IMG/VR virus record: IMGVR_UViG_2700989489_000020
Source: a virus
Taxonomy: Duplodnaviria; Heunggongvirae; Uroviricota; Caudoviricetes
Length of the DNA stretch: 8,601 bases
Reading direction: 5' to 3' (one strand)
Made by a program: the position numbers and the translations under genes. How positions within the stretch are numbered: the first letter of the stretch is position 1; every line of letters starts with the position of its first letter. Shown in pieces: positions 2,280-8,601 of this stretch. The notes under the pieces are model-generated. The model worked only from the letters and a program-made list of their open reading frames with translations. It was not told the DNA's origin and ran no database searches.

Positions 2280-3038
2280 TCAAGTGCCTTTCCTGGTCCA
2301 GCCATATTTTTTGAATGCAGGCGCCGCTTCATCGGTTTGTAGCCATTCTGCAAATCGACGGGTTTCATCATTTGCATCCTGACGTACTGTAATGTTCATA
2401 TCACGCCATATCACGTAGTCTGGCGCTATTTCCACGACATCACCAATTTCTGGATTACTGGCTGCCCAGTCAGCCCAGGTTATCCAGACATCTGCTCCAG
2501 GCTGATTCTCAAGAGCCTTACGTGCAGTTCCGCTATTGGGCGCATATAAAATAATATTTTTTCGGATTGCGGCGACAGTTTCTATATTCCCTTTACGTCC
2601 GGCAATATCTTCCCAGACGCCAGTGCCTGATGTATTACTGGTACCACCACCATCATTAACAATTACGCCAATCCCAGGTCTGGTCAGGTCGTCAATACTC
2701 CGGATATTTTTAGGATTACCTTTCTTTACCAGTAAAATACTTTTTCGCAGATAAAGAGGCTGAATATCTTTTTCACTGAAGCTGTCTTTATGGTCCCGAA
2801 TGATAGCCAGAGCAGATTGTTCTGATGCGCCAAACAAGATATCTGCATTTTTTTTGGCATCTTCATTCCATTTGTTCTGTGGGCCGTAATGAACGTTCAC
2901 TATAATACCTGTTTTTTCGGCATAAAGTTTGGCTGCATCAAGCAAGGCTGTATGCGGGCCACCAGGACCATACAGATTGATATCAGCATAAGCAGCAGAA
3001 GACAGGAATATTAAAAAACCTGCCATTATGTTCCTCAT
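2280..3038 (-). CDS. Secreted periplasmic substrate-binding protein (ModA-like solute-binding fold), orphan cargo gene
   Basis: ORF track 252 aa. AAGGAG 7 nt upstream of the ATG at 3038. Sec-type signal peptide MRNIMAGFLIFLSSAAYA then DINLYG. C-terminal ...FKKYGWTRKGT resembles the ModA C-terminus from memory. Visibly AT-rich relative to neighbours. Confidence 0.75.
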   Translation of the reverse strand: MRNIMAGFLIFLSSAAYADINLYGPGGPHTALLDAAKLYAEKTGIIVNVHYGPQNKWNEDAKKNADILFGASEQSALAIIRDHKDSFSEKDIQPLYLRKSILLVKKGNPKNIRSIDDLTRPGIGVIVNDGGGTSNTSGTGVWEDIAGRKGNIETVAAIRKNIILYAPNSGTARKALENQPGADVWITWADWAASNPEIGDVVEIAPDYVIWRDMNITVRQDANDETRRFAEWLQTDEAAPAFKKYGWTRKGT

Positions 3039-3202
3039 AAAAAACTCCTTTTATTGGTTATCATGAAATAAAGTTATAAACACTACAAATAATATATATT
3101 ACATCCAGATAAACTTATCCGACTTTACCTCGTGCATAGCTTGTTATTTAAAGTCAACAAAATAAGGAAAATTATACGCATATTGAAGAGTATAAACCTT
3201 AC

Positions 3203-3230
3203 ATGTTGATTACATTTTTGTAATCAACAT
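3203..3230. promoter_or_regulatory. 28-bp palindrome ATGTTGATTACA-TTTT-TGTAATCAACAT upstream of the binding-protein gene
   Basis: Perfect 12-bp inverted arms, 4-bp spacer, inside the AT-rich leader about 165 bp upstream of the start at 3038. No U tract on either side, so not a classic terminator. Confidence 0.5.
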
Positions 3231-3289
3231 CCTGTTTGGAATAGCCAGCCTTTAATGGATAACTATTTCTGACAATGCAATGAGTATAA

Positions 3290-3897
3290 TCAAGTCCATC
3301 TTCCACTGAGAATTAGAGGCGGCATGCTTTTTCCGGCTCTTGCCGGATATCCGTAATTGTCCATAATCTGCAGATTTATACCTTCTGCATGACCTGTCAG
3401 CGAAAATTTGTCCGGTGTTTCTACGGGAATGACATCAAAAGTTACACGCACTCGCGTTACCGTGTAGACCTACTTTCCTGCACTTGCAAGATCACAGTGG
3501 TGTAACCGTAACAGGAATTTATTCTCTGGACCGGCAGTAAATCCCTGAGTGGCGTGGTTCCCATATCAATTTCCCGCCAGGCAGCCTCCATTGCCAGCGT
3601 ACAGGCTGGAGCCATGACCTGCCCTTTAAATCTGGCCCGACCATCCCACCGGACGTGTTCTTCTCCCCTGAACTTAGGTACAGTCATCTCCAGTGGCACA
3701 AAAGTGTCAGCGCCATAATTTTTGACCGTTATCGCGCTACGGATATTTTGTTGACTGGTGAAAATCACCCCGCAGAATCAGGCTTATTCCCTTAACCTGG
3801 GCTTTCATCCTGACCGCCGCCTCACTACGACCAATCAGACTGCCGATGCATTTTACCTTCATTGTTAGTATCATGATTTCAGGCCTGCACCATCCGC
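3290..3897 (-). pseudogene. Decayed coding region: protein-like minus-strand reading frames broken across three frames
   Basis: Minus strand gives a 42-aa stretch (MKVKCIGSLIGRSEAAVRMKAQVKGISLILRGDFHQSTKYP), ORF 3457..3768, then an unstarted open frame ...VTRVRVTFDVIPVETPDKFSLTGHAEGINLQIMDNYGYPARAGKSMPPLILSGRWT ending at 3290. No single intact ORF, no good RBS. Family not recognised. Confidence 0.3.
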
Positions 3898-4631
3898 TCA
3901 TTGCCCGGACTTCCGACAAATCCCGGCAACCATATCCCGGTGCTTGTTCAGCTCCCGCAGCGCGGCGCAGACTCGCTCCCACTTCTGGACATGATTCTTC
4001 GCCCTACGCAGTTCGCGATTTGCCATATGCAGCGATGGCAAAATCAAATCATCTTCTCGCGTTGCAGTAAACGATGGCAGCGACTGCACAATGTCCGCCA
4101 CAGTTTCTGTTTTAATATCTTCCTGTGTTGCATCTTTCTGTACCGGTAACGAACACCGGCTGGCTGAGGAAAGGCTTTACCATCGGTTTCCGCTACCGAT
4201 TCAACTTTCGGCTCTGCTGGTAAATTATCACCTGGTATGCAGTAACGAATTTTACCGTTCTGGTTTACGCGAATCAGACGACCTTTGCTGATTGCCATTG
4301 CCAGCGTTGAAGCAACTTTGCGGGATGTTGTACCGAACAGCGTAGCCAGTTCATCCGCCGTTTGTGGTCCGCGTTGTTCAATCGTCGCGGTTAAATCGCA
4401 CTCTGAGATTTTCGCTTCTGTTGCCGTGGTGGTTTCTTCTGGCGCTGGCTGTTCCTGCTGAACGTTGTTATCAGCCACACGCCAGGTGTATACGCTTTTA
4501 TCAACGAAGCCAGCCTTTTTCAGTTCCCACAGCTCGTTCAGTACTTCTTCACGACTGATATCAAGTCGCGCAGCCAGCTCTACCGACGTGGCTTTTCCCA
4601 TCGCTTTCAGTGCGTCAAAAACAGTCTCCAT
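3898..4631 (-). CDS. Winged-helix prophage protein (DUF1627-like), apparently frameshifted near 4140-4180
   Basis: ORF 4044..4631 has GGGAGGAAA 5 nt upstream of the ATG and an HTH-like N-terminus, but its last ~40 aa are low-quality. A second frame (open from 4176, ORF 3898..4101) encodes plausible sequence [73 protein letters not shown]1627 name is from memory. Confidence 0.5.
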
Positions 4632-6682: not shown

Positions 6683-6893
6683 TGTTCAACCGCCCCGCCC
6701 GCTTTGCCTTACGATATTCGTCATAAACTTTGGGGTCGTACTGAAGTTCCCCGCCGGATGCCTCTTGCAGGCGCATCGCGCGACCTTCAGGAACCAGTTC
6801 CCCCCATGCAGCAACGCTTGCCAGCCTAACTCCTGCGACATTGGCAAGCTTTGTTTTGCTGCCAAAAAACGCTATAGCATCAATTTTCAACAT
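6666..6893 (-). CDS. Cro-like HTH regulator (P22 Cro / YdaS family)
   Basis: 75 aa. AAGGGG 6 nt upstream of the ATG. Core FFGSKTKLANVAGVRLASVAAWGELVPEGRAMRLQEASGGEL resembles P22 Cro from memory. Divergent from the repressor. Confidence 0.75.
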   Translation of the reverse strand: MLKIDAIAFFGSKTKLANVAGVRLASVAAWGELVPEGRAMRLQEASGGELQYDPKVYDEYRKAKRAGRLNNENHH

Positions 6894-6969: not shown

Positions 6970-7377
6970 ATGAAAAACGAAACCTTCGGTGCTCGCCTCT
7001 TATACAGGCGAAAAAAATTAAAACTGTCTCAGGCCGCATTAGGTAAGCTGGTCAAAGTGGCTCACGTAACAATTTCTCAATGGGAAAGAGATGAAACACA
7101 GCCAGCGGGGAAGAGATTATTCGCACTGAGCCAGGCGCTTCAGTGCTCGCCGACTTGGCTTCTTTTTGGAGATGAAGATAAGCAACCAGGCGAACCGATC
7201 CCAGATAATCAGCCAGTCAATCTGACAGAAGATCAAAAAGAGTTGCTTCAACTGTTCGACGCACTGCCTGAGTCAGAGCAAAAGGCTCTGTTGTCAGAGA
7301 TGCGTGCTCGAGTTGAGAATTTCAACAAACTTTTTGAAGAACTACTCAAAGCTCGCAAAAGAAGCGCAAATAAATAA
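6970..7377 (+). CDS. CI-like prophage repressor, XRE-family HTH, no S24 peptidase domain
   Basis: 135 aa. HTH in LSQAALGKLVKVAHVTISQWERDE. Too short for a LexA-like autocleavage domain and no such motif seen. No Shine-Dalgarno; apparently leaderless. Confidence 0.85.
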   Translation: MKNETFGARLLYRRKKLKLSQAALGKLVKVAHVTISQWERDETQPAGKRLFALSQALQCSPTWLLFGDEDKQPGEPIPDNQPVNLTEDQKELLQLFDALPESEQKALLSEMRARVENFNKLFEELLKARKRSANK

Positions 7378-8254: not shown

Positions 8255-8521
8255 ATGGAATTTAAAGATTTACCAACGCCATTACAGGAAATGGCATCGA
8301 ATATAGTTCGTTCACAACTGGCTACTCTTGACCTTAGTACCGCAGAAAAAGAAACCATCGATAATATGGTTCGTAATGTGCGCAATGCTTTTTCTGGGCT
8401 ATATGGTTCTGATAATCAAAAGCAGGAAAGCGATGTTAATAAACGGGTAATTTCTGTTTGCGTGAATGGCCATGTGAGGTGTACTGGCAATAGCGGACAC
8501 TACCATTTGTTCTTTTTTTAA
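8255..8521 (+). CDS. Hypothetical protein (88 aa as read); 3' end probably replaced by IS-derived sequence from about 8480
   Basis: ORF track. GAGG 8 nt upstream. Last ~13 codons lie inside the inferred IS terminal repeat. Confidence 0.5.
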   Translation: MEFKDLPTPLQEMASNIVRSQLATLDLSTAEKETIDNMVRNVRNAFSGLYGSDNQKQESDVNKRVISVCVNGHVRCTGNSGHYHLFFF

Positions 8522-8601
8522 GCAGCCATCTGATGATATTTTTCCCTGAAGGCTGCCGGGGAGATATTCCCCAGACGAGAGTGACGACGCTGACGATTGT
8601 A
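8480..8601 (-). mobile_element. Right end of an IS3-family insertion sequence (terminal repeat plus transposase 3' end); element continues past the window
   Basis: Plus strand from 8480 reads TGTACTGGCAATAGCGGACAC, resembling the IS3 terminal repeat as I recall it (TG..GCAATAGTGGACAC). Transposase stop lies 38 bp inside that end. Confidence 0.55.
8518..8601 (-). CDS. IS3-family transposase (OrfB-type), C-terminal 27 codons only
   Basis: Minus-strand translation YNRQRRHSRLGNISPAAFREKYHQMAA-stop, matching the conserved C-terminal pattern of IS3-family transposases (compare IS3 ...[24 protein letters not shown], from memory). Confidence 0.65.
   Translation of the reverse strand, partial: YNRQRRHSRLGNISPAAFREKYHQMAA

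Follow-up and report, generated by a model that had tools for sequence, protein, structure and literature searches.

The window analysed here, an 8,601-bp stretch of DNA that represents a lambdoid prophage's early region, almost certainly ends in the right end of an intact IS600 element, inserted in the middle of a gene in the dicB-type left operon of this ompW-adjacent prophage in one sublineage of E. coli O26:H11. All 8601 bases are an exact substring of NZ_CP031922.1 (E. coli O26:H11 FWSEC0001). The window itself holds just 127 bp of the element, so its completeness and the target duplication were read from this matching public genome, where a window position equals the position in locus L001 of NZ_CP031922.1 minus 3621. 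The remaining IS600 bases lie past the window end, the whole element occupying L001 12096-13359 (1264 bp). Since both ends are present there with an ATG duplication, the element is complete and the event is a simple insertion.

Structure and identity of the element

The features that define the element and its junction are the following:

8475..8601, minus strand: right end of IS600, terminal 127 bp (the window being an exact substring of NZ_CP031922.1)
8475-8501, unstranded: IRR (right terminal inverted repeat) TGAGGTGTACTGGCAATAGCGGACACT, 27 nt, one member of an inverted-repeat pair
8518..8601, minus strand: IS600 transposase (OrfB part of OrfAB), last 27 codons and stop, the translation being the end of the OrfB frame
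8472..8474, unstranded: left copy of the target-site duplication ATG; the right copy, at L001 13360-13362, is outside the window
8255..8474, plus strand: 5' part of the disrupted gene, codons 1-73 and one base (from its reconstruction; labelled 'missing C-terminus' by PGAP)
8475..8521, plus strand: IS-derived tail of the chimeric ORF 8255-8521 (from the ORF list compared with the reconstructed native protein)

The boundary is fixed at 8474/8475, where the plus strand reads ...GTGAATGGCCATG on the prophage side and TGAGGTGTACTGGCAATAGCGGACACTACCATTTGTTCTTTTTTTAAGCAGCC... on the side of the element. The two flanks of the whole element read ...GGCCATG before the IS and ATGTTCTTT... after it. The IRR pairs with L001 13333-13359 at 19 of its 27 positions (70% complementary), the repeats being 1210 nt apart, and the element begins with TGAGGTG... 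at window position 8475 and ends with ...CCTCA at L001 13359, which gives it TG...CA termini.

Minus-strand frame 1 of positions 8470-8601 translates as YNRQRRHSRLGNISPAAFREKYHQMAA, followed by a stop codon whose complement lies at 8518-8520, and the OrfB frame of the complete element ends in exactly this peptide. The corresponding RefSeq coding sequence (L001 12139-13295), which equals the window from 8518 onward, is annotated as 'IS3-like element IS600 family transposase, programmed frameshift'. The product of orfA matches the Pfam domain HTH_Tnp_1 (1.5e-20), and that of orfB matches HTH_21, rve (3.6e-26), rve_2 and rve_3, of which rve represents the DDE domain. Against the NCBIfam model NF033516 (transpos_IS3), orfB scores 352.4 bits at a cut-off of 160. 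The overlap of the orfA and orfB frames lies at an A7G run (complement of L001 13039-13045), the predicted site of a -1 frameshift.

With its TG...CA termini and imperfect inverted repeats, overlapping orfA and orfB, a score above the cut-off of the curated family model and a 3-bp target duplication, the element is a member of the IS3 family. The RefSeq annotation of identical copies suggests the name IS600, as does the length of the element, which agrees with the 1264 bp of the ISfinder reference.

A sequence-only reading of this DNA had recognised an IS3-family element near the end of the window, a transposase C-terminus on the minus strand and a terminal repeat starting with TG. All three were borne out: the element is of the IS3 family by the Pfam and NCBIfam matches and IS600 by the RefSeq annotation, the C-terminus occupies 8518-8601 within a stretch matched in 3646 E. 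coli records, and the repeat is the 8475-8501 sequence pairing at 19 of 27 positions with the other end. The IS boundary had been put near 8480, within 5 bp of the true one at 8474/8475. The same reading had proposed a search for the other IS end and for a target duplication of 3-4 bp, and both were found, the duplication being the 3-bp ATG.

Insertion site and operon context

Removal of the IS and of one ATG in silico yields a 408-bp ORF of 135 codons, into which IS600 is inserted after codon 73, that is, mid-gene. The plus-strand ORF at 8255-8521 (88 aa) consists of 73 native codons and of 15 final codons plus a stop that are derived from the IS: codon 74 (8474-8476) owes its second and third bases to the element, and 14 IS600 codons and a TAA stop follow. 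Its translation runs ...VNGH and then VRCTGNSGHYHLFFF up to the stop, in place of the native ...VNGH followed by VLSSIKTETATV... This ORF is the product of a chimeric pseudogene and not a real gene. The IS boundary had been put inside its 3' end; the ORF is indeed interrupted, but the insertion is in the middle of the gene, and what looked like the 3' end is IS sequence.

The restored 408-bp sequence is found in 659 E. coli genomes, with query coverage of at least 80% in 521 of them. Among the 25 matches listed, which include serotypes O157:H7, O145, O26, O103 and O121, the restored gene is 100% identical over its full length. The O26 strain RM10386 carries the intact gene, encoding the hypothetical protein WP_000394552.1, at the same prophage position between ydfC and dicB, and the site matching window position 8475 is empty of IS in this strain. 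The intact gene at the same place in RM10386 and the wide occurrence of the restored sequence indicate that the insertion is recent and lineage-restricted. The intact protein falls in phrog_1363 (PHROG match 4.8e-47), every PHROG family matched being of unknown function, and a search of the 135-aa protein against Pfam gave no match.

According to this reconstruction, an IS600 copy transposed into the middle of the 135-codon gene, duplicating the 3-bp target ATG. The disrupted gene would thereby be inactivated: 15 residues encoded by the IS would follow the truncated 73-aa product, and the 135-aa protein has presumably lost its function.

The genes surrounding the insertion are arranged as follows:

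6970-7377, plus strand: DicA-like HTH repressor gene, followed by a hypothetical gene, ydfC and the disrupted gene
within the window, minus strand: genes for a Cro/CI-family regulator and a YdaT-family protein, two replication genes (encoding a protein with a DnaT-like domain, and replication protein P), then paa, and hokD with sok
L001 14096-14147, operon strand: DicF sRNA (Rfam, 76.7 bits), about 740 bp beyond the far IS end

Beyond the IS, on the same strand, follow DicF, dicB, a DUF1482 gene, a 2.5-kb exonuclease gene, xis and int, and then ompW. IS600 thus sits within a dicB-type left operon, with its transposase gene antisense to the operon, and separates DicF and dicB from the repressor-proximal promoter region. 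The view that the element merely abuts the left operon does not hold, the 3' half of the disrupted gene, DicF and the genes from dicB through int all continuing beyond it. The Qin prophage of E. coli K-12 has the same order around the site (DicA-like HTH repressor, small ORF, ydfC, DicF, dicB). Unlike Qin, the prophage studied here has an extra gene between ydfC and DicF, the 135-codon target of IS600.

In Qin, the dicB operon comprises ydfA-ydfB-ydfC-dicF-dicB under DicA control, and DicF is processed from the operon transcript. Insertions of about 1.26 kb are commonly polar. In the prophage of FWSEC0001, an antisense insert of this size would lessen the read-through by which the repressor-controlled promoter reaches DicF, dicB, the exonuclease gene, xis and int, and IS600 is probably polar on these downstream genes. 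Since a consensus scan for terminators on the plus strand of the IS found two weak sites, no more than in shuffled sequence, polarity is put no more strongly than that. A hybrid promoter directed outward from the IRR was considered and rejected: the IRR contains a -35-like hexamer, TTGCCA, and the flank has no acceptable -10 sequence at a distance of 16-18 nt.

Several other features of the prophage are of note. A hok/sok type I toxin-antitoxin system is encoded on the minus strand, with the hokD coding sequence at 1789-1944 and the sok RNA match at 1942-2091 (103.9 bits). The paa gene (2280-3038, minus strand) encodes the AcfC-family adhesin Paa of 252 aa, a virulence-associated cargo among the early genes of the prophage, and after it comes a fimbrial-protein pseudogene with a frameshift, at approximately 3199-3732. 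The DUF1627 gene (3898-4631, minus strand) carries an annotated frameshift and is represented in the window by two ORFs, 3898-4101 and 4044-4631. At the end of the prophage in FWSEC0001, the type III effector gene espK is present.

State of the prophage and alternative readings

The FWSEC0001 prophage is probably defective, on evidence other than the IS600 copy of the window. Its late-gene end adjoins tRNA-Ser (serT) and the hya operon, and its int end adjoins ompW. No att-type repeat, and no repeat of 14 nt or longer, was found to be common to both ends. In RM10386 the prophage is flanked by yciE and ompW, and 3'-end sequence of ompW is duplicated at its two ends. The serT/hya and ompW flanks in FWSEC0001 point to a chromosomal rearrangement between prophages, and the gene order there differs from the outcome of a single inversion. 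The prophage ends were located at L006 11003-11400 and L001 18683-19367.

Other lesions are present within the prophage. ISCro1, an IS66-family element comprising tnpA, tnpB and a transposase gene (in the region L006 13517-17808), divides the tail-fibre gene into an N-terminal and a C-terminal part. Frameshifts are annotated for portal and for DUF1627, and an internal stop for a gene of the TerB family; sequencing error could account for some of these. The earlier proposal that the prophage is defective therefore stands as probable, by its non-cognate flanks and by the other IS and frameshift lesions; it is not implied by the IS600 insertion, since defectiveness does not follow from the disruption of a small accessory gene.

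In RM10386, a second IS600 (in the region L127 5832-7935 of this strain) is bordered by a shortened antirepressor gene and a C-terminal fragment of the tail-fibre gene, and the entire terminase, head and tail module has been lost at this place. This looks like an IS-adjacent deletion. IS600 has clearly had a part in the decay of this family of prophages, but not via the copy in the window.

The second IS600 of RM10386, which marks the site of a lost head and tail module in the same prophage, lends some colour to the idea that the IS end in the window is likewise a breakpoint, either a solo end or the product of an IS-mediated adjacent deletion or inversion, and the fact that the window stops at 8601 would by itself be compatible with it. 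It is nevertheless exceedingly improbable, because the exactly matching genome contains the complete 1264-bp element with its ATG duplication, and because the two flanks of the IS join into an uninterrupted gene that is 100% identical in hundreds of genomes. The rearrangement point suggested by the sequence-only reading is instead a clean insertion, with both ends and the target duplication present in the matching genome. The possibility that chance alone gave this prophage DNA a transposase-like translation and a TG repeat can be discarded altogether, given thousands of matches at 99% identity or more annotated as IS600 and family models passed by wide margins.

It is also unlikely, if less so, that the prophage owes its defectiveness to the window copy of IS600, through a block on the expression of xis, int and the recombination genes from the left-operon promoter. 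Such an effect would fit the antisense placement of the IS, which has the repressor-proximal promoter region on one side and DicF, dicB, the exonuclease gene, xis and int on the other, and insertions of this size are commonly polar. What was hit, however, is an accessory ORF, small and of unknown function, and lesions independent of this IS are at hand: serT/hya and ompW flanks without a shared repeat, unlike in RM10386, the ISCro1-split tail-fibre gene, and portal and DUF1627 genes annotated as frameshifted. The preferred reading thus remains a simple insertion of intact IS600 into an accessory gene of a prophage that is probably defective on other grounds.

Distribution of IS600 and relation to known insertions

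IS600 was first described in Shigella sonnei and is common and amplified in E. coli strains that make Shiga toxin (STEC; O26, O121, O145 and others) and in Shigella. The distribution of the element was assessed by megablast of window positions 8380-8601 against 5426 complete E. coli genomes. The part at about 8475-8601 is matched in 3646 E. coli records at 6807 places, with identity of at least 99% in 2846 records, and the annotation beneath these matches is always 'IS3-like element IS600 family transposase'. Counted by genome, the match is present in 3067 of the 5426, at up to 43 places per genome; in the FWSEC0001 chromosome, the same search located nine IS600-end places. Copies 100% identical over the full 1264 bp occur on many E. 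coli plasmids, where they are annotated as IS600, as are 100% identical copies on E. coli chromosomes, and 140 Shigella plasmids also match the element. Occurrence in multiple copies in Shigella and pathogenic E. coli is the distribution expected of IS600.

The junction between prophage and IS is rare by comparison: the whole query is matched at 100% in three of the 5426 genomes (O26:H11 FWSEC0001, MBT-5 and 05_3471). It could therefore mark the lineage of an O26:H11 subclade. Beyond this, the insertion adds one further case of IS3-family elements eroding the prophages of STEC, and is of little importance beyond annotation.

A preferred target of IS600 was considered as well. When the best partial megablast matches, representing three independent IS600 insertions, were aligned, a GAATGGYC-like motif appeared just outside the IRR. 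IMG/VR (loci L007-L126) supplied 103 independent flanks of IS600 right ends. AATGG was found in the last 15 nt of none of them, and over these 15 nt they agreed with the window flank at 4.2 positions on average, against 3.75 expected by chance. The GAATGGYC motif, absent from these flanks, was dropped; its appearance is an artefact, because thousands of places had been ranked by query coverage. A weak bias in composition is seen outside the IRR in the same sample, G standing at position -6 in 40 of the 103 flanks, and A or C at -5 in 71. The chi-square values of 14-16 are uncorrected for the 20 positions, and the flanks give no clear target consensus.

The IS-excision enhancer (IEE) is known to assist excision of IS600 (PMC9397093), and the insertion described here, as with other IS3-family copies in such strains, may be reversible by this route if the strain carries iee. 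It has also been considered whether IS600 acts as a reversible, IEE-excisable switch that uncouples DicF/DicB, the exonuclease gene, xis and int from the left promoter and would stabilise the paa-carrying prophage. This is very unlikely. If true, such a switch would uncouple the toxic cell-division inhibitors DicF and DicB from the repressor-controlled promoter in this O26:H11 sublineage.

Overall, the element is an already known one acting in a known manner, routine for such a pathogen. IS600 is described as an IS3-family member that is amplified in STEC, including O26:H11, and has a 3-nt target sequence (PMC9397093). The copy at the window end shares with known IS600 the length of 1264 bp, the TG...CA termini, the 27-nt imperfect repeats, the A7G site, the transposase with an rve domain and the 3-bp duplication. 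No difference from known IS600 is detectable, and just the insertion site is particular, as seen from the junction present in three of 5426 E. coli genomes. The closest parallel is the IS600 insertion in lacZ of STEC O121:H19 (PMC9397093), in which the same element lies antisense to the host operon at a 3-nt target and inactivates a gene, by an insertion that is potentially reversible by IEE-mediated excision. Unlike that case, the target here is an accessory gene, without known phenotype, of a prophage.
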